NCBI GenBank assembly: GCA_045594045.1
Contig: JAZNXV010000034.1
Coordinates: forward strand, 1,075-65,074
Reading direction: 5' to 3'
Length of the DNA stretch: 64,000 nt
From: Clostridia bacterium
GTDB taxonomy: Bacteria; Bacillota; Clostridia; Christensenellales; QALW01
Below, piece after piece: positions 1,952 through 26,321 of this stretch (within the stretch, counting starts at the first letter, position 1; every line of letters starts with the position of its first letter). A program made the translations under genes and the position numbers. A model generated the notes under the pieces. It had not been told where the DNA came from. It was given only the letters and a program-made list of their open reading frames with translations, and did no database searches.

Positions 1952-1964
1952 AAATCCACCCCCC

Positions 1965-4088: not shown

Positions 4089-4202
4089 AGGGTAGATATC
4101 ATATATCAGTCTGCCTAAATAACACTCATTATATATATAAGGGGCAAAAAATGAGACGTTTTTTATGTGTCAGGACTTATTTTTGCATTCAGGAGGAACA
4201 AC

Positions 4203-7200: not shown

Positions 7201-7496
7201 CAGCCGCAAGATATCAGACGGCTAACCGTAAGGCTATGTCAAAGTTACCTTGGGACAAGAAATCCATGGAAATGATTCAGGAACAGTGGAAATACGTAAA
7301 GGCAATTCCTCAGGTTCCCGGCAGTTACTACACAGCTCGTAATATTGAGTTTGCGTGGAAAGAGGTTATCAATGATGCTACGGCAGAACCCAACACAACG
7401 TTCGTTGAATACGTTGGTATGATTGATGACGAAATCGCCCGTAAGCGCGAAGAATTTAAAGATAAAATTGCTATTATGATGGCAGGAAAGGAGTAA
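4203..7496 (+). CDS. giant extracellular solute-binding protein (N-terminal beta-sandwich/CBM-like modules fused to a family-1 sugar SBP domain)
   Basis: ATG at 4203 follows AGGAGG, and the signal peptide is MKSLLNKMLVFVIALSVVFSVLSCVAYA. The C-terminal ~450 aa resemble sugar-binding SBPs. It sits directly upstream of a MalF/MalG-type permease pair. The start is trimmed from the ORF-track 4167. Confidence 0.8.
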   Translation: MKSLLNKMLVFVIALSVVFSVLSCVAYAAPASTDNTSTTVTNQGASADNAEVLDNAPNAQAFNNKVYGEDNYEKYYNSYTDKTAPQVNIRLNGADAVEFDGTTGEVIGSLPMVERASANNPTDLRSGALFLDEGIAGWVVNIKQTGWYNMTFSYLAYDEIVYTKDGNQYSATSKSSAVQRRVYIDYKIPFYEARQVNFERVWKDATVLSVNSQNGNEKRPYQIETEQWQTVPVRDYMGYEAEPFKFYLEEGTHTIAFEAIKEGMLVEYVELHQIDAAPTYAELLKQYESNGYQKVSGVGSVYVQAEGLHAPETYLDAQKDIFLSSAVYNKYVNYIDPIDTTSYDATKDPTYDILKSAPTLYPIIDRSSSTSVPYHHCKIRYNTIGADKWIKPNEWIEWTVDVEKAGLYAISFKARQNILSGMHSTRKLTINGVQPCAEVGNITFEYGNDFFNCTLGDETNGTYYFYFNEGKNTIRLETTLGDLGALLDKAESSMTQLNAAYRQILMITSASPDVNRDYQLNIMVPDALAKLKAQQAALEALEQEFIDVFGLGASAQLSTIKSAILLLDKMNADHTKIAENFTSLKDTIAAMGTWINEMSENPLELDYFVITTEENIKNIPAASPDFFARFVHEIRSFIASFTEDYDNIGGTVSVDGKQPVKVWLETGAGLTGSRDNATILKQIIDDMFTANTGVVVETRLVAGGSLLPSVLSGIGPEVCLSRSATDAVNYAFRGAVMNLADETLFPDYKDVLLNEERFAASATVPFTFGTQIFAIPETQDFSMTFYRTDILEELGLEPPETWDEVNNIIGHLQHKQMTFAMPVPVVGAVGSGEGTFAMFLFQKGGQYYTDDRSSTDLDSDEALDAFKEWTAFYTQQDLPNTYDFANRFRTGEVPIAIAGYSQYSQLAVFAPEIQGLWEFSLVPGTPKTDANGNPILDENGNQVIDHSCSSGVSGCIMLGIDTSNPEGVERAQRAWQFMSWWTGDEAQYRFGTEIESLLGAAARYQTANRKAMSKLPWDKKSMEMIQEQWKYVKAIPQVPGSYYTARNIEFAWKEVINDATAEPNTTFVEYVGMIDDEIARKREEFKDKIAIMMAGKE

Positions 7497-7502
7497 AAGA
7501 GA

Positions 7503-8447
7503 ATGGCTGATTCAAGCGTCGCAAAGACAAAGGGAAAGAGCTTTTTCCGCGACTGGTTAAAATATCAGTTCAAGGAAATGCGTAAGAACGGCGCATTATA
7601 TCTCTTTATGCTCCCTTACTTACTTATATTCATTACTTTCACAGTGCTTCCTGTTTTCGTAGCAATTTATTTCAGCTTTACATACTTTAACGTTTTAGAG
7701 CCTCCGCAGTGGACCGGCTTTGATAACTACGTAAGGCTGTTTACTGCAGATGATTTGTTTATTACTGCGTTTAAGAACACAATCTTTTTTGCAACAATTA
7801 TCGGTCCCGGCGGCTATCTTTTATCCTTGCTCTTTGCTTGGCTTATTAACGAGCTTGGCAGAAGAACAAGAGCGATTATGACCTTGTTCTACTATGCACC
7901 TTCTCTTGCAAGTGCACTCCCCGTTTGGAAGATAATTTTCTCATCTGACCAATACGGTTTATTAAACGGCTTTTTAATGAATACGGGTATTACTTACAGT
8001 AACATTAAATGGCTTGAAGACGTTAACTATATCGTACCGTGTTGTATTATAGTTATTCTCTGGGGTTCTCTTGGAACAAGCTTCCTTACGTTTATTGCAG
8101 GCTTGCAGAACGTTGACAGAACGCTTTATGAGGCAGGCGCTATCGACGGCGTAAAGAACAGATGGCAGGAGCTTTGGTATATTACGTTACCTTATATGAA
8201 GCCGCAACTTATGTTCGGTGCCGTTATGAGTATTACGGGTGCTTTTACCGTAGGCGGACAAATTACGGCACTTGTAGGTTATCCCTCTCAGGACTACGTA
8301 GCCCATACGCTGATGCATCACCTTGAGGACTATGCTAACCAAAGAATGGAATTAGGCTATGCTTGTGCTATTGCCGTGCTTCTGTTCTTGTTGCAGCTTG
8401 GTACAAACAAGGTTATTAAAAAATTACTTTCGAAGGTGGGTGAGTAA
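7503..8447 (+). CDS. carbohydrate ABC transporter permease (MalF/UgpA-like), pair 1
   Basis: Six predicted TM segments and the EAA loop YEAGAIDGVKNRWQELWYITLPYMKP. Confidence 0.9.
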   Translation: MADSSVAKTKGKSFFRDWLKYQFKEMRKNGALYLFMLPYLLIFITFTVLPVFVAIYFSFTYFNVLEPPQWTGFDNYVRLFTADDLFITAFKNTIFFATIIGPGGYLLSLLFAWLINELGRRTRAIMTLFYYAPSLASALPVWKIIFSSDQYGLLNGFLMNTGITYSNIKWLEDVNYIVPCCIIVILWGSLGTSFLTFIAGLQNVDRTLYEAGAIDGVKNRWQELWYITLPYMKPQLMFGAVMSITGAFTVGGQITALVGYPSQDYVAHTLMHHLEDYANQRMELGYACAIAVLLFLLQLGTNKVIKKLLSKVGE

Positions 8448-8450
8448 GTT

Positions 8451-9296
8451 ATGGCAAAAAAACTCAACCGCTCCGGCGCGGGTAATTTTACAGGTATCTT
8501 CTTCCTTTGCTTTATAGCGATATTTATGGTAATACCGCTTGTATATGCAATAGGTAACTCCTTTAAGCCTATGGACGAACTTTTTAAGTTCCCTCCAACG
8601 TTGTTCCCTAACAGATGGATTACCACTAACTATACTGACCTGTTTGTTCTTATGGGTAACTCATGGGTACCGTTCTCAAGATATTTCTTTAATACCTTAT
8701 TTATAACGGTAGTAGGTACCTTCGGTCAGATTGTTTTCTGCTCACTTTGTGCATATCCTCTTGCTATGTATCAGTTCCCGGGCAGAAAGTTCATCTCCGG
8801 TATGATCGTTACCGCACTTATGTTCAACGGTACAGTTCTTTGGCTTCCCTTGTTCATTATCAAGGCAGGCTTAGGTATGATTGATACATACTATGCAATA
8901 ATCATTCCTACCTTCGGCTCTGCGATGGGTATGTATTTGATGCAGAACTTTATGTCACAGATACCGCGCTCATTGATTGAAGCCGCACGTATTGACGGTG
9001 CAAAAAACCTTAAAATTTTCTGGTCAATTGTTCTTCCTCAGGTTAAATCAGCATGGCTTACACTTATGATTTTCTCTGTTCAGGGCCTTTGGAACACGGG
9101 TGCATCGGTATTTATTCAAAGCGAATCGCTTAAGACCTTACCCTACGCACTTACGCAGATTGTTTCTACAGGTATTGCCCGTGCGGGTGTTTCCAACGCA
9201 ATTTCAGTTATTATGATGGCTGTTCCGATTACTACTTTCATTATTTCACAAAGTAACATTATCGAAACTATGGCTACATCAGGTATGAAGGATTAA
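8451..9296 (+). CDS. carbohydrate ABC transporter permease (MalG/UgpE-like), pair 1
   Basis: EAA loop IEAARIDGAKNLKIFWSIVLPQVKS. There is a 3-nt gap to the upstream permease. Confidence 0.9.
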   Translation: MAKKLNRSGAGNFTGIFFLCFIAIFMVIPLVYAIGNSFKPMDELFKFPPTLFPNRWITTNYTDLFVLMGNSWVPFSRYFFNTLFITVVGTFGQIVFCSLCAYPLAMYQFPGRKFISGMIVTALMFNGTVLWLPLFIIKAGLGMIDTYYAIIIPTFGSAMGMYLMQNFMSQIPRSLIEAARIDGAKNLKIFWSIVLPQVKSAWLTLMIFSVQGLWNTGASVFIQSESLKTLPYALTQIVSTGIARAGVSNAISVIMMAVPITTFIISQSNIIETMATSGMKD

Positions 9297-9310
9297 GGGG
9301 GTGCTGGATA

Positions 9311-11149
9311 ATGAAAATAAATAAAATCGTATGTCTGGTACTTACTTTAATACTGACTACCACAATTTCGGTAACTGCTTTTGCAGCTCCGTATCAAAAC
9401 TATACCGTAACTGAATCGGGCGTTTATCCTGAACCTCAGGCTTACGTTCCCGACCAGGTTATCAACAGCGGTCTTATCGGTCTTGAAAACCTTGGCGGCG
9501 TTGCAATCAGCTCGCCCCAGGATTTAACCTTGTATAAAAAGAACGGCTACGTTATTCTTTCCGATACCGGAAATAAGAGAGTTATCGTTCTTGACAGTGA
9601 TTTACGTACGGTTAAACAAATCATTTCAACGTGGACAAAGGATGGGGTAGAGGATACCTTTAAATATCCTAACGGTCTTTTTGTACACGAGGCACAAAAT
9701 CTGCTTTTTGTTTGCGATACCGATAACCAGCGTATAGTAAGCTTCTCATTTAGTGAAGAAACAGGGCTTTTCAGCTTTGTAAGAACTTATGATGACCCCG
9801 ATATTTCAAAATACTTTACCGAGGACGGTGAAGAAAACGTTACAGCAACCGTAACACCAGCACCTACAGAAGAGCCCACTCAGGACGATTCAACCGATGC
9901 AACAGAGGGTGAAGGTACTGCTGATGGCGAAATACCGGACGATGAAATCGAAATCGATAACAACACCTCTACAGAAGGCTCAACGGGTACGCAGGTATCA
10001 TATAAGCCTTTAAAGGTTGTTGTAGATAACGCAATGCGTATGTTTGTAGTTTCTAAAGACTGTTATCAAGGTCTTGTAGAATTAAATGACAACGGTGAAT
10101 TTACAAAGTTCTACGGTGCTACAAAAACAAAGCAATCACTTTCCGCATTGCTTAACCGCTTATTTACGGCTGATGCAAAAAGTAAACGTCAGCAAAACCT
10201 TTCCACAGAGTACAGTAATGTAACTATGGATGACCAAGGTTTTATTTACGGTACTATTTCACAGCTTAAGCTCGATGAGCTTACCGAGCATTTTGCCTCA
10301 TCGGCTGAAATCGGCGCAGCGCTTCGTAAATTGAACGCCGCAGGCTCTGACGTACTTAAGCGTACCGGCATTACTCCTCCTTCGGGAGATAAGGGTGACG
10401 AAAAGAACAGATCAAGCTATTCCTATTTGTGTGACGCAACAGTTTCCAAAAACGGCTTGACAAGTGTTCTCGACTCTCAAAAGGGTAGAGTATTTACCTA
10501 CACAAGCAACGGCGAGCTTCTTTATGTTTTCGGTGCTTTAGGTCAAAAACTCACTCAGGTTGGTGAAGATAAAACGTCATCAAGAGAGGAACAGGTTGGT
10601 TATACCATGGGTACAAACCTTTCGCCTGTTGCAATTCAGCTTCTTAACGATGATGAAACAATAGTTGTTCTTGACGCTCAAGGCGCACAGATGACTACTT
10701 ATAAGCCTACTGAATACGGTTTAATTCTTCGTGATGCTATTAACAGTCACGCAGAGCGCAGATATGACGATGCCTTAGAAGCTTGGAACAAGATTTTAGG
10801 TATGTCATCTAACTCTTCTCTTGCATATCGCGGTGTTGGTAAAATTTATTATCTTAATGCTTCTGTATTAAAGGTTGATGAAAACGCCGATATTGAGAAT
10901 ATTGAGAGTATCCGTATTGAGCAGCGCGAAGAGAAAAAGAAGGTTTTCCTTCAAGCTGCAGATTGCTTTATGAAGGGCTATTCACAAGATGAATACGGCA
11001 GAGCTTTCTATCAGTACAGAGATTTAGTTCTTGAAGACGTTATGCCTTATCTTATGTGGGGTATAATCCTTGTAGTTGCTGCAACTACAATTTTCGGCTG
11101 GGTTAAAAAATTCAAAAAATTTGTTAGGACGGGAGGAAGAGATATCTAA
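9311..11149 (+). CDS. secreted NHL-repeat-like beta-propeller protein with acidic linker, TPR-like segment and C-terminal TM anchor
   Basis: Signal peptide MKINKIVCLVLTLILTTTISVTAFA. Repeated segments of the type GYVILSDTGNKRVIVLD and LLFVCDTDNQRIVSF are present. Low-complexity linker TPAPTEEPTQDDSTDATEGEG and a C-terminal helix LMWGIILVVAATTIFGWVKKFKK. Confidence 0.6.
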   Translation: MKINKIVCLVLTLILTTTISVTAFAAPYQNYTVTESGVYPEPQAYVPDQVINSGLIGLENLGGVAISSPQDLTLYKKNGYVILSDTGNKRVIVLDSDLRTVKQIISTWTKDGVEDTFKYPNGLFVHEAQNLLFVCDTDNQRIVSFSFSEETGLFSFVRTYDDPDISKYFTEDGEENVTATVTPAPTEEPTQDDSTDATEGEGTADGEIPDDEIEIDNNTSTEGSTGTQVSYKPLKVVVDNAMRMFVVSKDCYQGLVELNDNGEFTKFYGATKTKQSLSALLNRLFTADAKSKRQQNLSTEYSNVTMDDQGFIYGTISQLKLDELTEHFASSAEIGAALRKLNAAGSDVLKRTGITPPSGDKGDEKNRSSYSYLCDATVSKNGLTSVLDSQKGRVFTYTSNGELLYVFGALGQKLTQVGEDKTSSREEQVGYTMGTNLSPVAIQLLNDDETIVVLDAQGAQMTTYKPTEYGLILRDAINSHAERRYDDALEAWNKILGMSSNSSLAYRGVGKIYYLNASVLKVDENADIENIESIRIEQREEKKKVFLQAADCFMKGYSQDEYGRAFYQYRDLVLEDVMPYLMWGIILVVAATTIFGWVKKFKKFVRTGGRDI

Positions 11150-11790
11150 TGGAAAAGCTTAAAAATTTCGGCAATGACCTTAAATATGCATTCCACGTTA
11201 TTACTCACCCGCTTGACGGATTTTGGGATTTGAAGCACGAAAAGCGCGGCAGAAGCTATATCGCCGTTCTCTTCCTTGTGCTGTACGTTATTACTGACAT
11301 TTTAAATAAACAGTTTAATAACTATACGTTTAATGCTTTTAAGGTAACACCTGAGGATATTAACATTATAGGTACGTTCGTTTCGGTAGCACTTATAGTT
11401 GTTATTTGGGTTGCTGCCAACTGGGGTCTTACAACCTTGTTTGATGGCGAAGGCAGTATGAAGGACGTGTTTATTTACACGGGATATTCAATGCTTCCCT
11501 TAGTGCTTTCACAAATTATTTTAATTCCCCTTACAAACGTGCTTACGGTTAACGAAGCCGTTATCGTGTCTCTTATTTCTACAATCGGTATCGGTTGGAC
11601 CGCAATCCTTCTTTATACCGGTACTATGACTACTCACCAGTACACCGGAGGCAAAACCTTCATTACGTTATTGGCAATTCTTCTCGGTATGGTTATCATT
11701 GTTTTCTTGAGCGTGTTGTTCTTCTTCCTTGTTCAAGAAATTTGGAACTTTGGCTTTACCATTTATCGAGAGCTTGAGTTACGTAGGTAA
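11149..11790 (+). CDS. Yip1-domain-like polytopic membrane protein
   Basis: The 213-aa protein has five hydrophobic helices and an N-terminus (FHVITHPLDGFWDLKHEKRG) typical of bacterial YIP1-family proteins. Its start overlaps the upstream stop (TAATG). Confidence 0.6.
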   Translation: MEKLKNFGNDLKYAFHVITHPLDGFWDLKHEKRGRSYIAVLFLVLYVITDILNKQFNNYTFNAFKVTPEDINIIGTFVSVALIVVIWVAANWGLTTLFDGEGSMKDVFIYTGYSMLPLVLSQIILIPLTNVLTVNEAVIVSLISTIGIGWTAILLYTGTMTTHQYTGGKTFITLLAILLGMVIIVFLSVLFFFLVQEIWNFGFTIYRELELRR

Positions 11791-11800
11791 CGGAGGTGGA

Positions 11801-14509
11801 ATGAACATGAAAAAAAGAATTATTTCCGCCTTGTTAATACTTTTATTGCTTCTTCCTATTATGGTAATGTTTACCGGTTGTGCAACAGAAGTAGAAGAAG
11901 GCTATATTACTCCAACAAACAATGAACCTGATTATCAGTTCAGCGCTAATGCTCCCACCTTCGTTCGTGAGGACAAAGATAAGGATACTATCTTCACTTT
12001 AATTGAAGAAAATGATAAGTACGAGTTCTACTTTAGCTCGGAAATTCTTGAAATTGCTTTAAAGAGCAAGGAAACAGGTGAAATTTGGTATTCAAATCCT
12101 GCGCCCTCTGATAGAAATATCGGCATCAAGAGTGAAATGAGTAGCCAGGTTTCCTTGTTTTATTTAAACAAGAAGGACGGCAGCCAAAGCACTCTCGAAA
12201 GCTATCTTGACTGTATTTTAAATAATAATGAAGAGTTGGGTATTGAACAGTACCATGTTGTTAATCACAACGGTAATCTGCGAGTTATCTATGTTTTAGG
12301 TCAAATAAAGCCTGATTATATTATTCCCACTTGTATTGAAGGCTCAGTAGCCGAACAGTACGCGGCGGCAATGAAGGCTGATCCTAAGCATTCAAGCCAG
12401 GCAAGAGCTATCACCACGGGTAGTGTGTATGCAAAAATTACACCTAACGTATGGAGCACATATACTACCGATATACAAAACGAATATTTGCAAATTGCAC
12501 CTAACATGGGTCAGTTTATTGCTGAAGGAAAAACGGTTTATATCATAAAGGACCAAACAAAGCTTTACAACGCAGAGCGTATGCAAAAGCTTCAGGCAGC
12601 CTTTGTTGAGGTTATTGGTATGGACCTTGAAGCCCGCGACAAAATAAACGAAGAGTTCGGTGTAGAAATCGAACCTGCAAAGACCTTCTGGATTCCGGTT
12701 GACTACGAGCTTACGTCGGGCGGTCTTAGCGTAACAATTCCCAACGAAGAAATTAAGTACGATACAAACACCTTTGCTATCGCATCAATTAACCTGCTTC
12801 AATATTTTGGCTCCGCTTCAAAAAGCGAAGAAGGTTATATGTTTGTTCCCGATGGCTCAGGCGCAATTATTAATTTCAATAACGGAAAAACAAACATTTC
12901 CAAGGATATTCGCGTGCAGCTTTACGGCCTTGACGACGGACGTGAACTGTTAACAAGACCCTATAGAAACGAGCAGGCATATCTCCCCGTTTTCGGTATC
13001 AAAAAGGCAAACAGTGCGCTTTTCGGTATTATTGAAAGCGGTGATACAAATGCTACGATAGTTGCAGATATTGCAGGCAAAAACGTTACTGCAGTTGATC
13101 GCAACAGATGCTATACAAGCTTTAAAATGTCTGAATATGAAGAAATTCAGTTCAAGAGCGCCGGTAAGGTTTCTCGTATTTATCAGAACGAGATGAACTC
13201 GGCTGACCTCTCAATCACCTATTCAATTCTTGACGGTGAAAAGGCTAATTACAGCGGTATGGCGGAGTATTATAGAAATTACCTTATTGATAAGGGCGTT
13301 TTAAGCAAAAAGAACTTTAAGGATATTCCGTTTAATATCGAGCTTGTTGGTGCTTATGACCATAAAACTGCTTTCTTAGGTGTTGGCTATACAGAGATGA
13401 AGGCTATCACAACCTTCGACCAATGCCAAGAGCTTATTAAAAAGCTTGCAGATAAGGGCGTTAAGAATATTTCGATCAACTATAAGGGTTGGGCGAACAA
13501 CGGCTTAAGAAACAGCGTGTTTAACAAGGCTCACGTGCTTGATGCATTAGGCGGCAAAAACGGTTTAACCAATTTGCTTAATTATGCCGAAGGCTTGGGT
13601 GTAAACGTGTTCTTTGAAACAGAGCTTGCTCTTGTTTATAAAACGGAGCTGTTCGGCGGATACAATACGCTTACACAGGCTTCAAGACTTGTAACACGTG
13701 ATATTGCATATCATTATCAGTATATTGATAACTGGAATACGGCTTCACCCGATAATAAGGCTACGATAGCCGCTCCCTCAAATATTTATAATATTGATAG
13801 CGAAGATAACAGCAGAAGCTTCTTAACAGGTCTTGTAAACGATATAAACAACCTTAATATTAAGGCAGTAAGTCTTGGTAGCCTTGCAAACAATCTTCCG
13901 GGCAACTATAAGGTTGACGATTTCTATGATAGAGACAAAACAGCCAAAACTTATGCTGCCGTTGCAAAGAAATTCAGCGAAGACAAGATTGTTATGGGTA
14001 AGAGTGCTAATAACTATATGCTTGCCTACGTTGATGAAATCTTTGAAATCAGCAACATAAGCAGTAAGTTTAACCTTGCTGACCAATCAGTTCCCTTCTA
14101 TCAGATGGTAATTCATGGTTGCATTGAGTATTCCGGTGAGCCTATTAACCTTAACGGCGATACCCGCAGAACCTTCCTTCAGGCTGTTGAAGCAGGCTCC
14201 GGCTTATATTACCGTTGGTGCTATGCTCCAAACACCGAAGTTCAGGACCTTTGGTTTGAGGGTATGTATTCATTGAATTACGAGGCTTGGCTTGATGAAG
14301 CTATTGCTATGTACAATGAATATAATAATATGCTTTCGGATACCGCAGATGCTTTCCTTGTAAATCACGAGGCTGTTGCCGAAAATGTAAACAAGATTAC
14401 ATACAGTAACGGTGTTGAGGTTTATATCAACTATAACTCTTATGATTACACTGCGGCAGACGGCACGCTTGTTAAAGCAGAATCTTTTGCAAAGGGGGGG
14501 AATAATTAA
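11801..14509 (+). CDS. large (~900 aa) lipoprotein of unknown function (from memory, resembles DUF5696-type proteins)
   Basis: The lipobox reads MVMFTGC. The start is ATG 11801 or ATG 11807, both behind GGAGGTGG. The ORF-track start at 11729 overlaps the Yip1 gene. No catalytic motif is recognisable by eye. Confidence 0.7.
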   Translation: MNMKKRIISALLILLLLLPIMVMFTGCATEVEEGYITPTNNEPDYQFSANAPTFVREDKDKDTIFTLIEENDKYEFYFSSEILEIALKSKETGEIWYSNPAPSDRNIGIKSEMSSQVSLFYLNKKDGSQSTLESYLDCILNNNEELGIEQYHVVNHNGNLRVIYVLGQIKPDYIIPTCIEGSVAEQYAAAMKADPKHSSQARAITTGSVYAKITPNVWSTYTTDIQNEYLQIAPNMGQFIAEGKTVYIIKDQTKLYNAERMQKLQAAFVEVIGMDLEARDKINEEFGVEIEPAKTFWIPVDYELTSGGLSVTIPNEEIKYDTNTFAIASINLLQYFGSASKSEEGYMFVPDGSGAIINFNNGKTNISKDIRVQLYGLDDGRELLTRPYRNEQAYLPVFGIKKANSALFGIIESGDTNATIVADIAGKNVTAVDRNRCYTSFKMSEYEEIQFKSAGKVSRIYQNEMNSADLSITYSILDGEKANYSGMAEYYRNYLIDKGVLSKKNFKDIPFNIELVGAYDHKTAFLGVGYTEMKAITTFDQCQELIKKLADKGVKNISINYKGWANNGLRNSVFNKAHVLDALGGKNGLTNLLNYAEGLGVNVFFETELALVYKTELFGGYNTLTQASRLVTRDIAYHYQYIDNWNTASPDNKATIAAPSNIYNIDSEDNSRSFLTGLVNDINNLNIKAVSLGSLANNLPGNYKVDDFYDRDKTAKTYAAVAKKFSEDKIVMGKSANNYMLAYVDEIFEISNISSKFNLADQSVPFYQMVIHGCIEYSGEPINLNGDTRRTFLQAVEAGSGLYYRWCYAPNTEVQDLWFEGMYSLNYEAWLDEAIAMYNEYNNMLSDTADAFLVNHEAVAENVNKITYSNGVEVYINYNSYDYTAADGTLVKAESFAKGGNN

Positions 14510-15402
14510 TGAAAAAACCAAAAACTTATAAATTGGGCTTAATGACAAGGCGCTCATTATCGGGTTGGTTATTTGTGCTTCCGTTTATTATCGGTTTGAT
14601 TTTCTTTGTATTATCTCCCTTATATACGGCATTAGTTCTTTCGTTTAACACACAGTCATTTAACAACGTTACGGGCATCACAAGCCTTATTCCTAACGGC
14701 TTTGATGCATACGTAAAATCTCTTTCCGATCAAGGCGATTTCATTGAAAGGTTGCTTAGCTCCGGATCAAACCTGTTGATTATGGTGCCTTCAACGTTGA
14801 TTTTCAGCTTTTTGATGGCTAACGTACTTAACCAAGATTTCCACGGCAGAACCTTTGCCCGTGCGGTACTGTTTATGCCTGTTATCACCTCAGCCGGTGT
14901 TGCGGCAACAATGCTTGCAGGCGAAACCGGTGTTGACTCAGGTCAAATGGCTTCCGTTGGCTCTCAGGCAATGAATATTGCAGGTAGTATTCAGGATTCT
15001 ATTGGCGGCTCCTTCGGTGCATTCATCGGAACTGCATTTGATAAGCTTACGGATATTATCAACGGTGCAGGTGTTCCCACGTTGATTTTCCTTGCAGGCT
15101 TGCAAACCATTTCACCGTCAATCTTTGAATCTTCAAAGGTTGAAGGTGCTACGGGTTGGGAAAACTTCTGGAAGATAACCTTCCCCATGATAAGTCCCAT
15201 GATTCTTGTTAATACCGTTTACATCTTAATCGAAGTGCTTTGCGGTATGAAAAGTCCTATGCTTTCCTATTTGTACGACAAAAATGCGGCTCTTCCTCAG
15301 GTTGAGTTAATGGCAATGAGCTGGATGTACTTCTTGTTTACAGCCGTTATTATAAGCGCTGTAGCAGGCATTATATCAAAGCTTGTTTACTATGAGAACT
15401 AA
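14509..15402 (+). CDS. carbohydrate ABC transporter permease (MalF/UgpA-like), pair 2
   Basis: EAA-like loop FESSKVEGATGWENFWKITFPMISP. The TAATG start overlaps the upstream stop. Confidence 0.85.
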   Translation: MKKPKTYKLGLMTRRSLSGWLFVLPFIIGLIFFVLSPLYTALVLSFNTQSFNNVTGITSLIPNGFDAYVKSLSDQGDFIERLLSSGSNLLIMVPSTLIFSFLMANVLNQDFHGRTFARAVLFMPVITSAGVAATMLAGETGVDSGQMASVGSQAMNIAGSIQDSIGGSFGAFIGTAFDKLTDIINGAGVPTLIFLAGLQTISPSIFESSKVEGATGWENFWKITFPMISPMILVNTVYILIEVLCGMKSPMLSYLYDKNAALPQVELMAMSWMYFLFTAVIISAVAGIISKLVYYEN

Positions 15403-15416
15403 GGGGGGTGTAGGAA

Positions 15417-16454
15417 ATGGAAAAATCTGAAAAGATAAAGGTAACTAATGAAGTAGGTGCCGAAGAGGTTGATAACTACGTTATACCTACACTTACAAGA
15501 TGGCAAAAATTTAAGCGCGCTTTGTTTGGCAAAAGAGCCTTTGGATTAGTTTGGGGTCTCATACGTTCCGTTCTGTTGATCGGTATTTGCTACCTTATTC
15601 TCTATCCAATGTTAATTACTGTTATTACCTCGTTTATGTCCTCGGCTGACGTTTACGACCCAACGGTAATTCTTATTCCCCGTTCAATTAACGTTAACAC
15701 GTACATTGCTATGTGGCGTTATGCGGAAATACCGAAGCTTTACTTAAATTCATTTTCATCAGCTCTCGTATTTGCATTGATGCAAATGTGTTCCTGTATG
15801 CTTGTTGCTTACGGCTTGGCAAGGTTCAAGTTTAAGGGTAATAACTTTATATTCCTTATGTGTATATTTACACTTATGGTTCCCGTTCAAATGCTTGCAA
15901 CGTCAATGTATTTCAGATATAAGGCATTTAACCCCTTATATATGTTTACCTTTGGCGAACAGCTTTCAATGGTGCCCAATATTGACCTTACACGCGGTTG
16001 GACGGCAATCGGCTTGCTGTCCGCAACGGCTACAATGTACCGCAACGGTTTATTCGTATTCTTGTTGCGTCAGTATTTTATCAACCAGCCTAAAGAGCTT
16101 GAAGAAGCTGCTTATATTGACGGCGCAGGACCTTTCAGAACCTTCTTACAGGTTATGCTTCCCAGCGCAACGCCAATGCTTGTAACAGTTTTCCTCTTTG
16201 CTTTCGTTTGGCAGTACAACGATATTTATTACGTTTCGATGCTTAACCCCGGTGCAGAGGTTATGGCTACAAGAATTCTTAATATGGGTCAAAGCTATGT
16301 TGGCTCGGTGCTCGACGTTACCGGTGACATTGTTCTTAACTCGCTGTATCAATCGGCTTGTACGGTTATGCACGTTGGACCTATCGTTGTTCTCTATTGC
16401 TTCTGTCAGAAATTCTTTGTACAGAGTATCGAGCGTTCCGGTATGGTTGGCTAA
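15417..16454 (+). CDS. carbohydrate ABC transporter permease (MalG/UgpE-like, N-terminally extended), pair 2
   Basis: EAA loop EEAAYIDGAGPFRTFLQVMLPSATP and a GGGGG RBS. Confidence 0.85.
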   Translation: MEKSEKIKVTNEVGAEEVDNYVIPTLTRWQKFKRALFGKRAFGLVWGLIRSVLLIGICYLILYPMLITVITSFMSSADVYDPTVILIPRSINVNTYIAMWRYAEIPKLYLNSFSSALVFALMQMCSCMLVAYGLARFKFKGNNFIFLMCIFTLMVPVQMLATSMYFRYKAFNPLYMFTFGEQLSMVPNIDLTRGWTAIGLLSATATMYRNGLFVFLLRQYFINQPKELEEAAYIDGAGPFRTFLQVMLPSATPMLVTVFLFAFVWQYNDIYYVSMLNPGAEVMATRILNMGQSYVGSVLDVTGDIVLNSLYQSACTVMHVGPIVVLYCFCQKFFVQSIERSGMVG

Positions 16455-16811: not shown

Positions 16812-16851
16812 TTTTATAAAAAAATACGGAGTTAACTTCCATTAACTCCGT
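16812..16851 (-). terminator. intrinsic terminator closing the RRE-RmlA-kinase operon
   Basis: On the minus strand the hairpin ACGGAGTTAA/TTAACTCCGT (16826-16851) is followed by ATTTTTTTAT. Confidence 0.8.
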
Positions 16852-16866
16852 AGGATAAAACATAGG

Positions 16867-17571
16867 TTATTGGTCCGCAGACATTACCTTGTGCGCTAAA
16901 ACGGCCGCAGCCTCGTTAGGAAGGCAGGTAAGGCGGTAAAAGGGGATAGAGGCGATTAAAGCATCAAGCTCGTTTAAAAGCGCGTTAGAACGCTCTAAAC
17001 CTGCTCTGCGCATAGTTTGCGACAGCATTACCTGCAGTATTTCCACCGGCGACGTTAAACGCTCAATGGTATTTGCTTCGCCACGTTCAATAAAGCATAT
17101 TGCCTGCAGTGGAACCTTTGCGTTAACGTTTTTTGAGCTTGAACCGCTCCAAGGAGTACCGTAAACGTGATATTTCCCGTCTGTAAACCGCAACGCCGGC
17201 TTATCGTCATTAATAACGAATGCCTCAGGAAACACCTCAGTCCAAAGCGTAGTATGCGTAGATTTACCTACGCCCGATTCAGCAGAAAAGAGATAAGCCT
17301 TATTTTCGTAGGCTACAGCCGAAGCGTGCAGAACAAATCCGCCCTTTTCTAAAAGCTTTGCGGCAAATAGTTTGCTGTAAATATTGTATTGCACGTTTGA
17401 CGTGTTTAAATCGGGACGTTTTTCTAACTGCTTTAAAATAAAGGGCTCGCAATCCTCAAGAACAATATCGGGATTGTTGCAGTAGGGAACCAAATATTTT
17501 TCAGCGTGCTCTTGGGTGCGCCCAAAACAGTTCATATTAACTATGTAATCGGCAATAGAATATGATTTCAT
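16867..17571 (-). CDS. HPr-kinase-C-like P-loop protein (candidate peptide/precursor kinase)
   Basis: The motif HASAVAYENKAYLFSAESGVGKSTHTTLW resembles the HPr kinase/lasso-kinase P-loop (SGxGKS). Its ATG directly abuts the TAA of the upstream RmlA gene. Confidence 0.6.
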   Translation of the reverse strand: MKSYSIADYIVNMNCFGRTQEHAEKYLVPYCNNPDIVLEDCEPFILKQLEKRPDLNTSNVQYNIYSKLFAAKLLEKGGFVLHASAVAYENKAYLFSAESGVGKSTHTTLWTEVFPEAFVINDDKPALRFTDGKYHVYGTPWSGSSSKNVNAKVPLQAICFIERGEANTIERLTSPVEILQVMLSQTMRRAGLERSNALLNELDALIASIPFYRLTCLPNEAAAVLAHKVMSADQ

Positions 17572-18462
17572 TTAAAACTTTTTATTTCTTTCGGCAAGAC
17601 TGATAATGTATTTGCCGTAGTCAGTTGTTTTTGTGTCTTCGCCTAAAGCTCTGAGCTGCTCGGTAGTAATGAAGCCTCTGCGCCATGCAATTTCTTCAAT
17701 ACAGGAGATATAGAAGCCCTGGAGAGACTGTACTGCCTGCACGTAAGAAGAAGCGGTAAGCATACCGTCAGGAGTGCCCGTATCAAGCCAAGCCATACCT
17801 CTGCCCATCAAAATAACGTTAAGGTCCTTGTTTTTTAAATATTCGTTATTAACTGCGGTAATTTCAATTTCGCCGCGGGCAGAAGGCTTAACATTCTTTG
17901 CTATTTCAATTACGCGGTTATCATAGAAATATAAACCCGGTACGGCAAAATTGCTTTTGGGATTTTCGGGCTTTTCTTCAATGGAAATAACCTTGTGGTT
18001 TTCGTCAAATTCAACAACGCCGAAGGCTCTTGGGTCGGAAACGGGATAGCCGAAAATTGTAGCACCTGTTTCCACGGCTTTTGCGCGGAAAAGAAGTTGT
18101 GAGAAATTTTGACCGTAAAAAACGTTGTCGCCTAAAATAAGGCAAACGTTGTCATCACCTATAAAATCTTCACCGATAATAAAAGCATCGGCTAATCCGC
18201 GGGGAGTGTCCTGCACGGCATAAGAAATAGAAATGCCTAAATGCGAGCCGTCACCCAACAATGCGCGGTAAAGGGGTGTGTCGTTAGGTGTTGAAATAAT
18301 AAGTACCTCGTCAATACCTGCGAGTAAAAGCACAGATAAGGGGTAGTAAATAAGAGGCTTATCATAAATAGGCAATAATTGCTTCGATACAACCTTAGTC
18401 ATAGGATAAAGGCGAGTGCCTTTACCACCGGCAAGAATAATACCTTTTGTTTTTTTTGTCAT
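17572..18462 (-). CDS. rmlA: glucose-1-phosphate thymidylyltransferase (RmlA/RfbA type)
   Basis: N-terminus [38 protein letters not shown] and an RmlA-like C-terminus [15 protein letters not shown]. The start is trimmed to ATG 18462 behind GGAGGA. Confidence 0.85.
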
Positions 18463-18501
18463 TTTTTCTTCCTCCATATAAATTCGTTAAAACAGTAATT
18501 A

Positions 18502-18762
18502 TTATTCAAAAACGTCTATAGAGTTGAGTGTGCGCAGAAAATCGTCGGTATCAGCCTCGGCAATAGCACGGTCGATTTCATATTCGTTTGAAAGAGCAGT
18601 AATAACCTCTTCACGCGTTGCGCCCTTTACTAAAAGGTTCCATATAAAAACACCGGACTCATTCAAGGTAAGCATACCCGTAAAATCAGATTCGTCGTTT
18701 ACGGATATAACCGTATTGATGCCGGCAATGCTTTTTAGAATAAAGCACTCCTTAATTTTCAT
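18502..18762 (-). CDS. PqqD-family protein (RiPP recognition element-like)
   Basis: The 86-aa protein contains LNESGVFIWNLLVKGATREEVITALSNEYEIDRAIAEADTDDFLRTLNSIDV, the typical PqqD/RRE pattern. AAGGAG RBS. Confidence 0.75.
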   Translation of the reverse strand: MKIKECFILKSIAGINTVISVNDESDFTGMLTLNESGVFIWNLLVKGATREEVITALSNEYEIDRAIAEADTDDFLRTLNSIDVFE

Positions 18763-18791
18763 AGCAAATCACTCCTTGTAAGCATAAAAAT

Positions 18792-18821
18792 ATTATACAA
18801 TAAATATGCAATAAATGTCAA
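18792..18821 (-). promoter_or_regulatory. sigma-A-type promoter for the RRE-RmlA-kinase operon
   Basis: Minus strand reads TTGACA (18821-18816), an 18-nt spacer, then TATAAT (18797-18792). Confidence 0.6.
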
Positions 18822-18866
18822 GGATAACGCGAAGGCAAAAAAATATTAAATTATTAAAAAAACTTA

Positions 18867-18895
18867 TTGACAAGAAGATATGCTGGTGATATAAT
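18867..18895 (+). promoter_or_regulatory. sigma-A-type promoter for the small peptide gene
   Basis: TTGACA (18867-72), a 17-nt spacer, then TGaTATAAT (18887-95), a consensus extended -10. Confidence 0.7.
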
Positions 18896-18945
18896 TAGTG
18901 CGTATAGTAATATTGGCAATTTGTTTTGAGGAGATTGTGATATAT

Positions 18946-19068
18946 ATGAAGAAGATTTATTCAAAGCCAGAGGTTGAAGTTGTTGAACTTTTAAACGGTG
19001 CTGTATTTACTGATTTTGAAGACGGCGGCGACTTTGATGGTCCTGACGTTGTTGAGTCAGGAGCTTGA
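18946..19068 (+). CDS. 40-aa acidic peptide, candidate RiPP precursor (not in the supplied ORF track)
   Basis: Hand translation: MKKIYSKPEVEVVELLNGAVFTDFEDGGDFDGPDVVESGA*. GAGGAG lies 12 nt upstream. The gene has its own promoter and two downstream terminators. It carries a YxxPxV leader-like motif. Confidence 0.6.
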   Translation: MKKIYSKPEVEVVELLNGAVFTDFEDGGDFDGPDVVESGA

Positions 19069-19093
19069 TTAATTTACATCGCTATAAGCAATC

Positions 19094-19125
19094 AGCCGAC
19101 AAGAAATTTTGTCGGCTTTGTGTTT
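19094..19125 (+). terminator. intrinsic terminator after the peptide gene
   Basis: AGCCGACAA (19094-102) pairs with TTGTCGGCT (19109-17), followed by TTGTGTTTTT. Confidence 0.8.
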
Positions 19126-19131
19126 TTGGAG

Positions 19132-19162
19132 AAAAAAGCGGCTTTTCTTAAGCCGCTTTTTT
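19132..19162. terminator. bidirectional intrinsic terminator
   Basis: AAAAAAGCGGCTT pairs with AAGCCGCTTTTTT. The A-run and T-run let it serve both the peptide gene (+) and the pseudouridine synthase gene (-). Confidence 0.8.
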
Positions 19163-19171
19163 ATATAAAGA

Positions 19172-23841: not shown

Positions 23842-24092
23842 AAAAACCTCCAAATAAAAAATAAAACCCTGTGCATTTTGAAAAAAGCACAAGGCAAACC
23901 ACCAAAACGCGCGTACTAACATACGGTGTTGCGTAATGTGCAACTGACATCGGAAATTACTAAAAATTCGTCTCCGCCTCTGACAGGTGATATCTCCTAA
24001 AACCAAGCTGCGCGCTTACACCCACCGCACGCTCTCTGAAAGCTTAAAATAAAAGGAAACGTGTCCTGATAAACGAGTTTATTTATTCAGCA
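23842..24092 (-). promoter_or_regulatory. T-box leader (Ile specifier) controlling ileS
   Basis: The minus-strand transcript carries AGAGAG and GGUGGGUG stem-I elements. It has GAU-AUC-A with the AUC specifier at 23991-23989 followed by A. The T-box UUGGUGGUUUGCC overlaps the terminator CCUUGUGC/GCACAGGG (23894-23867) plus a U-run. Confidence 0.8.
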
Positions 24093-24231: not shown

Positions 24232-24476
24232 GAATAAAAAGATACTCACAGTTCATCAAGTGAAAGCTTGTAGCCGCAAGCAAAATGCTCTAAAGGCGTT
24301 TTGCCCGGGGATAAGGGAACGTCGGTGAAAGTCCGAGACAACAGCCATTACCGTAAAGTCGGAATGCTTATCGTTCTGTGATGCACGAAAAGGTCCTTGG
24401 GCAAAAGAAGGATGCGTTTTAAGGCATAGCTTATTAAGGCGTTCTTCTAAAAAAAGAAGGGCGTTTTTCTTTTTTC
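24232..24476 (+). promoter_or_regulatory. cobalamin riboswitch with expression-platform terminator
   Basis: AAGGGAACGUCGGUGAAAGUCCGAG...CAGCCAUUACCGUAAAGUCGGAAUGC matches the GGGAA/GGUGAAAnUCC/ACnGUAA core and a B12-box-like segment. The terminator CGTTCTTCT/AGAAGGGCG plus a T-run lies at 24440-24476. The downstream genes fit B12 uptake. Confidence 0.7.
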
Positions 24477-24506: not shown

Positions 24507-24995
24507 ATGAGAAAAACAATTTCAAAAATCGTATCAACGTTACTTATTGCTTTATTGGTGCTTTGCTTTAGTGCATGCACACCCAATACGCCCCCCGAAA
24601 CCCCCGGCGATTTAGGTGCTACGGCAACCGCAACGGTAGCGCCAAGTGCAGATCAGGGACCTTGGGCAAATGCTAAATATAAGGAAGATACTTCTTTGGG
24701 CGAAGGGGCTAACCAAATTATTCTTACCGTTAAGGTGGAAGAAAATAGCGTTAAGTTTACTATTAACAGCGATAAAACAAAATTAGGAGAAATTCTTCTT
24801 GATAACGAGCTTGTTCAAGGTGAACAGGGCGCATACGGTCTGTATATTAAATACGTTAACGGTATTCGTGCCGACTATGAGCTTGACAAGGCTTATTGGG
24901 AGATTACAAAAGATGGAGAAATGGTAAATTCCGGTGCGGATTCTATTGAAATTTTAAGCGGCGATAAGTATGAGCTTACGTACAAGAAGGCTTAA
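24507..24995 (+). CDS. DUF4430-like lipoprotein (transcobalamin-like beta-domain; candidate surface B12 binder)
   Basis: Lipobox LCFSAC. The C-terminus YIKYVNGIRADYELDKAYWEITKDGEMVNSGADSIEILSGDKYELTY follows the DUF4430 pattern (W..NG.....GA....L..GD). Confidence 0.7.
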   Translation: MRKTISKIVSTLLIALLVLCFSACTPNTPPETPGDLGATATATVAPSADQGPWANAKYKEDTSLGEGANQIILTVKVEENSVKFTINSDKTKLGEILLDNELVQGEQGAYGLYIKYVNGIRADYELDKAYWEITKDGEMVNSGADSIEILSGDKYELTYKKA

Positions 24996-25626: not shown

Positions 25627-25655
25627 TTGACACGCAGATTATAAAATGTTATAAT
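25627..25655 (+). promoter_or_regulatory. sigma-A-type promoter
   Basis: TTGACA (25627-32), a 17-nt spacer, then TATAAT (25650-55). Confidence 0.6.
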
Positions 25656-25727: not shown

Positions 25728-26321
25728 ATGGATATTAAAGAGGAAAATATACAAAGAGTAGATAATAAGCCGGCGTCAATATATTCTATTTTTGTATTCG
25801 CCATTGTCTTTTTTGTCTGCTATATGTTCTATCCTCAAATTTCAATGCTCGTGCCGTTTTTGGGTGAAAACGTTACTGTAAAAACAAGCTACTCAAAATT
25901 ACAGCCTGCAGATATGAAAAATGCCGCCTACGTGGTAGTTGGCGTTGCGGGCGAAAGAAGCGATACCGTAGCAACGGTTGAAGCTGGTGAGCCTGACGTA
26001 TATTGCTTGGTAGACTTTGAATGTGTTGACGTTTTAAAGGGCAATATAGCCAAAGGTGAAAGTTTAAGGATTGCTGAGTTAGGCGGTAGTGCGTTAATCA
26101 GAAATCCCAAAACCGACCGTCAGGAAAAATACAACGTTTCATATGAGAATGCGGCAAAGCTCGGAAAAGAAACGTATTTACTGTTTGTTGACAGTGGAAT
26201 GAATATCATGGGCGGTAAGTTTGGCATATATACTCAGCAGGCAAACGGAACGTTTAAGGATATTGACGGTTATATTTATTCAAAAGAGGATATATTAGGT
26301 CTTATTGCGGAGGCGCAGTAG
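25728..26321 (+). CDS. hypothetical membrane-anchored protein
   Basis: One N-terminal TM helix (IYSIFVFAIVFFVCYMF). Its stop overlaps the start of the downstream PBP gene. Confidence 0.6.
   Translation: MDIKEENIQRVDNKPASIYSIFVFAIVFFVCYMFYPQISMLVPFLGENVTVKTSYSKLQPADMKNAAYVVVGVAGERSDTVATVEAGEPDVYCLVDFECVDVLKGNIAKGESLRIAELGGSALIRNPKTDRQEKYNVSYENAAKLGKETYLLFVDSGMNIMGGKFGIYTQQANGTFKDIDGYIYSKEDILGLIAEAQ

Follow-up and report, generated by a model that had tools for sequence, protein, structure and literature searches.

A PqqD-RmlA-ScmC operon facing a small peptide gene in a Clostridia bacterium: a putative reduced member of a leader-peptide-guided maturation family

Organization of the locus and its encoded proteins

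The locus described here lies within a 64-kb stretch of contig JAZNXV010000034.1 of a Clostridia bacterium (this whole stretch is referred to as the window). It consists of a minus-strand operon encoding a PqqD-type protein, an RmlA-type nucleotidyltransferase and a P-loop protein of the ScmC family, which faces a plus-strand, 40-codon peptide gene. An earlier note on this DNA treated the peptide gene and the three-gene operon as one module. It proposed two options, the tailoring half of a lasso peptide cluster whose cyclase acts in trans, or a minimal modification system guided by a recognition element (RRE) for peptides that are made by ribosomes and modified after translation (RiPPs). The gene set, coordinates, promoters, terminators and 40-codon open reading frame (ORF) listed in that note were all present.

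The first gene of the operon (18502..18762, minus strand) encodes an 86-aa PqqD-type RRE, and its identification was borne out by a genuine match to PF05402 (E 3e-15). It is followed by the RmlA gene (17572..18462, minus strand) and by the gene for the 234-aa ScmC protein (16867..17571, minus strand). The ATG of the latter (17569-17571) abuts the TAA of the RmlA gene (17572-17574), as had been pointed out previously, and the two genes are translationally coupled. The RmlA gene has an alternative in-frame ATG upstream, at 18477; the start at 18462 is favoured because it is preceded by the ribosome binding site (RBS) GGAGGAAG. Transcription of the operon is predicted to start from a sigma-A promoter at 18792..18821 (minus strand; TTGACA-18-TATAAT, 12/12 consensus positions) and to end at an intrinsic terminator at 16825..16852 (minus strand; 12-bp stem, 4-nt loop and T-run), located between the ScmC stop (16867) and the gin gene. 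An 85-aa ORF opposite PqqD (18524-18781, plus strand) is a mirror-frame artefact.

The spacer between the divergent genes (18763-18945) holds two back-to-back sigma-A promoters, the second of which is an extended -10 promoter of the peptide gene (18867..18895, plus strand; TTGACA-17-TG-n-TATAAT, 12/12 consensus positions). Perfect TTGACA-N16-18-TATAAT sites occur three times in the window, compared to 0.07 expected from shuffled sequences, and two of the three are those of this spacer. The peptide gene (18946..19068, plus strand) is preceded by the RBS GAGGAG, 11 nt upstream of 18946, and encodes an acidic, precursor-like peptide of 40 aa with a net charge of -7, MKKIYSKPEVEVVELLNGAVFTDFEDGGDFDGPDVVESGA. 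It is monocistronic and closed by an intrinsic terminator at 19094..19117 (plus strand; 10-bp stem and T-run). An inverted repeat at 19125..19169 forms a second hairpin, with an A-run on one side and a T-run on the other, and is likely a bidirectional terminator shared with the convergent rluA gene. No Rfam family matched the peptide/promoter region.

The 234-aa P-loop protein contains LFSAESGVGKSTHT. It had been called HPr-kinase-like, and a profile search with PF07475 (Hpr_kinase_C) had been suggested as a check; neither this model nor any other of the local Pfam copy was matched at E <= 0.1. In precomputed annotation, the protein and its homologues are assigned to Pfam family PF27840 (ScmC). 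The NCBIfam model TIGR04249 (SynChlorMet ScmC) was matched below its cutoff (34.5 bits against 125, E 1.3e-8), and matches to the NCBIfam HprK_rel_A/B models were weak. Judged by these sequence matches, the protein is a member of the PF27840 family and not a TIGR04249 equivalog. It carries all 24 family-invariant residues, by construction, as the window protein is among the 27 alignment rows from which they were derived.

An AlphaFold2 (AF2) model of this ScmC, with a predicted local distance difference test score (pLDDT) of 94.7, was compared with solved structures using Foldseek. The top matches in the Protein Data Bank (PDB) were ATP-dependent phosphoenolpyruvate carboxykinase (PEPCK) and HPr kinase/phosphorylase (HprK/P), with E 3e-5 and template modelling (TM) scores of 0.3-0.55. 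In an hhalign comparison with a bona fide HprK encoded in one of the related loci (L003; E 6e-5), LHASAV...SGVGKST...INDDKP was aligned with RHGVLV...SGVGKSE...IADDAV, which brings together the His, P-loop and DD motifs. Searching PDB sequences with the ScmC profile yielded nothing meaningful, so the link to HprK/P and PEPCK comes from the fold search and hhalign. ScmC thus has the fold of these enzymes and an aligned His, GxSGxGKS P-loop and DD motif, while being very remote from them in sequence; it also differs from them in its N-terminal domain, and no link of ScmC to HPr was found. The kinase-like label therefore stands for the fold and the three motifs and falls for membership in PF07475, hence the protein is not a paeninodin-type kinase. 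We regard it as a putative NTP-dependent, peptide-modifying enzyme.

RmlA of the window scored 460.7 bits on TIGR01207 (cutoff 360.65). Its best match among solved structures was RmlA 1LVW (441 bits, E 1.4e-131, full length, residues 5-293), to which it is roughly two-thirds identical as counted by eye. The assignment as a canonical glucose-1-phosphate thymidylyltransferase, which would produce dTDP-glucose, is well supported by these scores. In its full-length, equivalog-level match and its high similarity to solved RmlAs the protein resembles RmlA of dTDP-L-rhamnose operons. In contrast to these, it is an orphan, since tblastn found no match to rmlB, rmlC or rmlD anywhere in the 64-kb window, and its gene is placed between the RRE and ScmC genes and coupled to the latter. 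The parallel that had been drawn with PsmN, the nucleotidyltransferase of the pseudomycoidin (psm) cluster, has to be dropped: RmlA is canonical, and the PsmN-like partner in the ScmC family is NTP_transf_5 (PF14907, the family to which we take PsmN to belong), which was not found in the window.

ScmC loci and leader peptides in Clostridia

At E <= 1e-3, 3976 homologues of ScmC were identified in a protein collection clustered at 90%, and at least 598 matching stretches in a collection with one genome per species. Almost all come from Clostridia (Oscillospiraceae, Acutalibacteraceae, Faecousia, Acetivibrio, Herbivorax and others). A metagenome scan gave no closer relatives of the window ScmC. 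Gene neighbourhoods were compared in a main set of 88 loci (the window and 87 related loci, 1.3 Mb), using our own ORF calling, clustering and hidden Markov models (HMMs). It should be noted that gene calling was crude (longest ORF plus six-frame HMMs), that the HMMs were built from the same loci as were scanned, and that the relatives were covered for up to 8-10 kb on each side and the source genome over 64 kb.

A recurrent gene order, exemplified by Acetivibrio cellulolyticus (L001), is ScmC, PqqD, a ~150-aa S24/S26-like protein, a half-size ATP-binding cassette (ABC) exporter and NTP_transf_5. The fullest common form has six parts: (i) a leader peptide, (ii) ScmC, (iii) a PqqD-type RRE, (iv) a soluble homologue of SipW-like signal peptidase, (v) the ABC exporter and (vi) NTP_transf_5. 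Among the 52 loci flanked on each side by 3 kb or more, PqqD was found in 38, the S24-like peptidase in 34, the ABC exporter in 17, NTP_transf_5 in 14, a leader-family peptide in 13 and RmlA in 7. The S24-like protein has GxSMxP and HR[IV] boxes, recognized by eye, and its best NCBIfam matches, below cutoff, were archaeal-type and SipW-type signal peptidase I. Fusions of this protein with ScmC occur in some genomes. Within one sub-clade (L003 10001-11137, L004, L023, L029 and L042), ScmC is fused to the SipW-like peptidase (fusions P0055 and P0048) or adjoins it; these genes lie right after dnaE, in a housekeeping-looking context, with no PqqD and no detectable peptide.

The small ORF located 5' of the ScmC gene in A. 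cellulolyticus reads MKNKKHYEAPEIEIQQFEVEDIIASSGLIPDSDEITM. A leader HMM detected leader-family ORFs in 20 loci of the 88. Apart from one match in L086, at 9.8 kb, their distance from ScmC is 0.4-2.2 kb, and most are found on the ScmC strand some 0.5 kb upstream of it. A loose regular expression for the leader had given mostly noise, and HMMs were used instead. A profile search of the protein collection retrieved at least 234 called peptides of this family. Those listed carry no Pfam domain and, where the source names them at all, are hypothetical proteins; no NCBIfam model exists for them. As this detection rests on one leader family, other precursors may have been missed.

Peptides of the family have 32-68 aa, are free of Cys and rich in Gly, Thr, Asp and Ser, and share the leader MKKxYxxPE[IV]E[IV]xxFxxED[IV][IL]TxS. 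Conservation was counted on 119 family peptides, with positions numbered relative to the P or A at position 0, which is present in 119/119. The most conserved further positions are F at +7 (119/119), E or D at +1 (116/119), Y at -3 and D at +11 (114/119 each) and S at +16 (111/119), followed by E at +10 (98/119) and T at +14 (83/119). The tail after the leader is variable. Only 2/119 peptides end in Ser, which speaks against transferring phosphorylation of a C-terminal Ser, the PadeK rule mentioned in the earlier note, to this family. Cores without any Ser, Thr or Tyr were found in 4/119 peptides, and positions 7-9 are free of Asp and Glu in many cores.

Five loci were selected through the peptide. 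In these, the peptide gene begins 5-38 nt after the stop codon of a gene for a secreted protein, either of LRR, Big_2 or MBG_2 type or unannotated. The ScmC gene comes directly after the peptide gene in four of the five loci and ~1.2 kb further downstream in L091, and other family genes come next. When L001 is included, a large surface/repeat protein with a Sec signal (Flg_new, LRR_5, Big_2 or MBG_2) precedes the peptide gene by 5-38 nt, with ScmC directly next in 5/6 loci (L001 7094-9820, L088 8116-10129, L089 8490-10162, L092 5768-8177, L093 1-8123 and L091 6474-7762). No shared C-terminal motif was seen in these upstream surface proteins, and the window has no such protein upstream of its peptide gene.

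Genes typical of capsule loci (CpsB, Wzz, BY-kinase, LCP) are neighbours of ScmC in 15/85 loci, and SLH-domain proteins in 9/85. ScmC clusters run into or adjoin capsule-type loci in L093 (8001-16123), L037, L049, L057, L060, L067 and L086, where Wzz, BY-kinase, CpsB phosphatase, LCP, a PglF-like dehydratase and a DegT aminotransferase were observed. In L061 (4822-13085), rmlA-rmlB-rmlD-rmlC lie directly 5' of NTP_transf_5-PqqD-ScmC, and an ABC exporter and two leader-family peptide genes are also present. This locus shows dTDP-sugar genes coupled to the ScmC system a second time, independently. The recurring capsule, SLH and secreted giant-protein neighbours hint at a role at the cell surface rather than that of a classical bacteriocin. 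In two further loci (L101 and L102), RmlA lies 3 kb from a distant ScmC.

The clade of the window and its peptides

The clade of the window comprises 11 loci: the window and eight fetched relatives, which form one monophyletic group in a neighbour-joining tree of ScmC, plus two loci (L103 and L104) added by architecture. All 11 contain the strict triad PqqD-RmlA-ScmC, with RmlA between the other two, in keeping with the earlier view of the operon as one unit. The triad is found behind rluA, behind yajC (L103) and behind an SNF transporter gene (L104), i.e. in at least three different upstream contexts, which speaks for its moving and being kept as a unit.

Three of the 11 loci carry a family peptide, namely the window, L104 (MKKKYLNPEIDIVEIKNNVSLQDESAILEEDFTD) and L007 (MKSYVKPEVKVIKLESTDALLLSTTIDQDQIP). 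Each of these peptide genes is oriented away from PqqD, with its own terminator and a perfect sigma-A promoter, and the promoter of the PqqD operon is matched at 12/12 positions in the window and L104. The window peptide was the top match in the window to the leader HMM (E 0.002), over residues 1-14 alone; this test is partly independent, as the window peptide was part of the profile with which the database peptides for the model had been collected. The YSKPEV motif and Thr22 are present, and the peptide ends in ...ESGA.

The 40-codon ORF is short, was missed by the supplied gene track and resembles the family over only 14 residues at E 0.002, and could on these grounds be taken for a chance ORF in a promoter-rich spacer, with the plus-strand promoter driving a non-coding RNA or nothing. 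We consider this hardly credible. The ORF is preceded by a perfect extended -10 promoter and an RBS and followed by a terminator, in a region without any Rfam match. The same layout of gene, promoter and terminator recurs in L104 and L007 with recognizably related peptides, and in cross-locus tblastn searches the best match of each peptide was the other peptide. The ORF to which the earlier note had drawn attention is thus a real member of a conserved family of precursor-like peptides, and its gene makes up a genuine, conserved unit with the three genes of the operon.

L007, which is nested inside the clade, holds its fullest version, with a SipW-like peptidase gene between PqqD and RmlA. Beside the peptide gene it also carries genes for NTP_transf_5, an APH-family kinase, a GlmU-N-like nucleotidyltransferase, a PglF-like 4,6-dehydratase and phosphoglucomutase. 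The peptide gene was considered as the head of an operon with these sugar genes, and this was rejected, as it has its own terminator. Because L007 lies within the clade and holds the fuller set, the window is best read as a reduced derivative of a set that includes the SipW-like peptidase, the ABC exporter and NTP_transf_5, and the description of the locus as a minimal system in the earlier note has to be replaced accordingly. Neither S24-like nor NTP_transf_5 sequences were detected in the 64 kb with six-frame HMMs. The nearest ABC exporters are encoded 12-13 kb from the locus (152-3758 and 30784-32691). That they serve the system was not adopted, given this distance and the lack of any exporter within 8 kb of ScmC in the syntenic loci L005-L007.

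Leader positions and peptidase vary together in the three peptide-bearing loci of the clade. D+11 and S+16 are kept in L007, which has the peptidase, and F+7, E+10, D+11 and S+16 are missing from the window and L104, both of which are without it. As D+11 and S+16 co-vary with the peptidase across these loci, the alignment suggests that the N-terminal half of the leader may be the part bound by the RRE and the second half the part recognized and cleaved by the peptidase.

Comparison with known systems and proposed function

A scan of ORFs of at least 120 aa within ~15 kb on each side gave no Pfam match to Asn-synthase-like (PF00733) or transglutaminase-like (PF13471) proteins; this agrees with the earlier statement that no lasso cyclase or transglutaminase-like leader protease lies in these flanks. 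The only PP-loop SGGxDS motif of the window is that of a GuaA-like gene at 58.9 kb. The same motif scan of the 1.3 Mb of the main set returned ThiI- and GuaA-type genes only. A lasso cyclase beside a homologous module, which the earlier note had named as the observation that would speak for an ordinary split cluster, was accordingly found in 0/88 main-set loci and in 0/5 peptide-anchored loci, the latter also having no B2 protease. The only recurrent neighbours of 500-700 aa are the ABC exporter, a fused Wzz/BY-kinase (4 loci) and a beta-helix protein (4 loci), none of them cyclase-like.

The closest known systems are the phosphorylated and phosphoglycosylated lasso peptide clusters of Firmicutes, which have been reported to carry an HprK-type kinase, a nucleotidyltransferase, the B1 protein and an ABC exporter. 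Lasso precursors of the paeninodin type are phosphorylated by HprK homologues. According to the pseudomycoidin paper, the HprK homologue PsmK phosphorylates Ser, and the addition of one or two hexoses to the phosphate requires PsmN, an uncharacterised nucleotidyltransferase whose structural homology to aminoglycoside nucleotidyltransferases is limited. ScmC loci share with the paeninodin (pade) and psm clusters a PqqD-type RRE, an HprK-fold enzyme, an ABC exporter and, in the wider family, an uncharacterised nucleotidyltransferase (NTP_transf_5), as well as a leader with Y-x-x-P-x-[LIV] and with Thr two positions ahead of a small residue. The differences are equally clear. The ScmC family has a SipW-like Ser-peptidase homologue in place of the Asn-synthetase-like cyclase and B2, its P-loop enzyme belongs to PF27840 and not to PF07475, and its peptides almost never end in Ser; the window, moreover, is without peptidase, exporter and NTP_transf_5 and carries a canonical RmlA.

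The best NCBIfam matches of the window PqqD were two lasso B1 chaperone models, both below cutoff (35.7 bits against 70 and 29.7 against 80). Lasso leaders follow the rule Y-17, P-14, L-12 and T-2, and the Y...P...T-x-S spacing of ScmC-family leaders is similar, with a gap that is longer by two residues. The lasso-like spacing, taken together with the B1-like RRE, kinase-fold enzyme, NTP_transf_5 and ABC exporter, suggests that ScmC-family loci share ancestry with the lasso clusters of Firmicutes. These likenesses, among them the YxxPx[LIV] motif and a T(+14)-x-S(+16) junction reminiscent of the lasso Thr(-2) rule (the window has F at the family S(+16)), are also what could be cited in favour of a split lasso cluster, whose cyclase and B2 would be encoded at another site of the genome. 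We judge this very improbable given the scans above, in which about 100 related loci yielded no cyclase or B2 gene, the replacement of B2 by the SipW-like peptidase, the many cores with no Asp or Glu at positions 7-9, the sub-cutoff B1 scores of PqqD and the failure of the P-loop protein to match PF07475. Of the two options of the earlier note, the RRE-guided system that works independently of a cyclase is thus favoured in outline, and a cyclase acting in trans is disfavoured by the absence of cyclases beside homologous modules.

The only named relative of the window enzyme is ScmC of the SynChlorMet cassette (TIGR04249). Both belong to PF27840 and are paired with a PqqD homologue (that of the window gives a weak, ScmD-like match), and both are known from bioinformatics alone. 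The window protein falls far below the equivalog cutoff. The defining partners of the SynChlorMet cassette are presumably two radical SAM/SPASM enzymes; no radical SAM match was obtained among the window ORFs scanned, and no recurrent cluster of radical SAM neighbours was seen in the relatives. Membership in the lasso class therefore fails on cyclase, B2 and PF07475, and membership in the SynChlorMet class on the radical SAM partners and the equivalog cutoff.

In our view, the locus is a reduced member of a large leader-peptide-guided maturation family of gut, rumen and cellulolytic Clostridia, and we assign a probability of roughly one half to this reading and the mechanism proposed here. Of the six-part set the window keeps peptide, RRE and ScmC, with ScmC and PqqD standing beside a leader-type peptide that matches in its N-terminal half only. 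The peptide would be transcribed at a high level as its own unit, to judge from its promoter, RBS and terminator. PqqD would bind the N-terminal YSKPEVEV segment, which resembles the lasso YxxPx[LIV] motif and is the sole part of the leader retained in the window, and would present the acidic tail to ScmC. The latter, with nucleotide bound in its intact P-loop/His/DD site, may then phosphorylate or phospho-activate a residue of the peptide, as its fold and motifs suggest. RmlA would make dTDP-glucose, a well-supported function, and this might feed a sugar-phosphate decoration, by analogy with PsmK/PsmN, or else envelope polysaccharide. A sugar-nucleotide link is supported by the rmlA-B-D-C genes of L061, the sugar genes of L007 and the cps genes adjoining many loci. 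No macrolactam cyclase would take part. The likely transferase of the family is NTP_transf_5, and as transferase, leader peptidase and exporter are not encoded in the window, the later steps would have to be missing or be provided in trans. In outline, the data support a leader-guided system that does not depend on a cyclase, with phosphorylation and sugar-phosphate transfer as its putative chemistry.

Several observations weigh against this reading. In eight of the 11 clade loci no peptide gene was detected, within flanks that reach up to 8-10 kb per side and are much shorter on some short contigs, and no peptide remnants or alternative small ORFs were found upstream of PqqD in clade members, nor any in canonical loci that have no peptide. 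In five peptide-less members (L005, L006, L009, L011 and L012), the triad lies 12-136 nt behind rluA in the same orientation, within an ileS-methyltransferase-rluA string wherever this is covered, which looks like a housekeeping context and not a dedicated biosynthetic cluster. The window peptide departs from the leader at four highly conserved positions (L for F+7, G for E+10, A for D+11 and F for S+16). In the wider family, the peptide accompanies ScmC in only 13 of the 52 well-flanked loci, and whole sub-clades consist of ScmC and the peptidase with no PqqD. HMM and Pfam scans of the window found no transferase, protease or adjacent exporter, the canonical RmlA could reflect envelope-sugar metabolism only, and no relevant paper with biochemistry of any ScmC-family protein was found in the literature.

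The same facts can be read as pointing to a triad with a peptide-independent role, or with a substrate supplied in trans, that is tied to envelope sugar metabolism, the small ORF of the window being a divergent leftover or a regulator. The peptide-less clade members, the triads placed behind rluA, the eroded leader, the sub-clades next to dnaE that have neither PqqD nor peptide, and the frequent proximity of cps, SLH and giant surface-protein genes would all fit. Against this stands the fact that peptide binding is, to our knowledge, the only role of PqqD-type RREs. Furthermore, a divergent peptide gene with perfect promoter and terminator has been kept in three clade members whose ScmC proteins are ~46-48% identical to that of the window, and family-wide the peptide is essentially always located beside ScmC. 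We therefore hold a peptide-independent triad to be a doubtful explanation, albeit the most serious of the rivals.

The chemistry of ScmC may also differ from that of a PadeK/PsmK-like Ser/Thr kinase. ScmC could be a class-defining ATP-dependent enzyme acting on the Asp/Gly/Thr-rich core, e.g. by activating carboxylates to give an ester, amide or imide, or by phosphorylation followed by elimination, in which case RmlA would be an operon passenger. Such a role would suit an enzyme that is the constant member of a family in which PqqD, peptidase, exporter and NTP_transf_5 vary, that is sometimes fused to the peptidase and whose fold is as close to PEPCK as to HprK; the Gly/Thr/Asp/Ser-rich cores, a few of which have no Ser, Thr or Tyr, and the rarity of a C-terminal Ser point the same way. 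The aligned His, P-loop and DD core is, on the other hand, of the HprK/P type, NTP_transf_5 co-occurs with ScmC as PsmN does with PsmK, and RmlA is invariant and translationally coupled in 11/11 clade loci, which speaks against a passenger. We regard this alternative as unlikely.

Returning to the leader-guided maturation system, a wider and more tentative proposal is that the products of ScmC loci are a new class of ribosomal peptides, or else modified peptides associated with the cell surface, made by loci related to lasso clusters, in which cyclase and B2 have been replaced by the SipW-like peptidase and ScmC is the class-defining enzyme. Its products would be linear, (sugar-)phosphorylated acidic peptides linked to capsule and surface-protein biology, and the window clade would be a minimal subtype using dTDP-glucose from RmlA as co-substrate. 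If the preferred reading is true, thousands of genomes from Clostridia of the gut and rumen encode a peptide pathway that depends on an RRE and has an uncharacterised key enzyme, ScmC, and an uncharacterised product, and the RmlA-coupled triad is an unusual case of a sugar-nucleotide enzyme of primary metabolism fixed within a peptide-maturation operon. The family is large and lends itself to testing, with its precisely defined conserved leader, compact enzyme set and a cultured representative, A. cellulolyticus (L001). A literature search returned only lasso peptide papers, with no description of the Clostridial peptide-ScmC-PqqD-peptidase family or of the RmlA triad. Genome-mining tools would probably give such loci no label beyond the generic "RRE-containing", a category counted 153 times in the Hungate1000 survey.

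The neighbours of the locus are gin (PF10764), the RluA-family gene and a methyltransferase gene, all identified with Pfam, and an ileS-type tRNA-synthetase gene, identified through Pfam tRNA-synt_1 on syntenic relatives. A large, conserved block adjoining the locus (4167-16454, plus strand) is syntenic in clade relatives and encodes a 1109-aa solute-binding-domain protein, four BPD_transp_1 permeases, an NHL-repeat protein, a Yip1 protein and a 926-aa DUF5696 protein. The third perfect promoter of the window (TTGACA-N17-TATAAT at 25627-25655, plus strand) lies upstream of an ORF with no Pfam match (25728-26321), which is followed by a PBP transpeptidase gene. A T-box leader was detected upstream of ileS at 23917-24082 (minus strand; 64.5 bits against an Rfam gathering score of 93, E 1.3e-13). 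The listed start of the ileS ORF (TTG at 24006) overlaps this leader, and the true start is probably located further downstream. Finally, a near-threshold match resembling the AdoCbl-II riboswitch (24302-24377, plus strand; 33.6 against 36.5 bits, E 6e-6) was observed just 5' of a DUF4430 gene (24507-24995).

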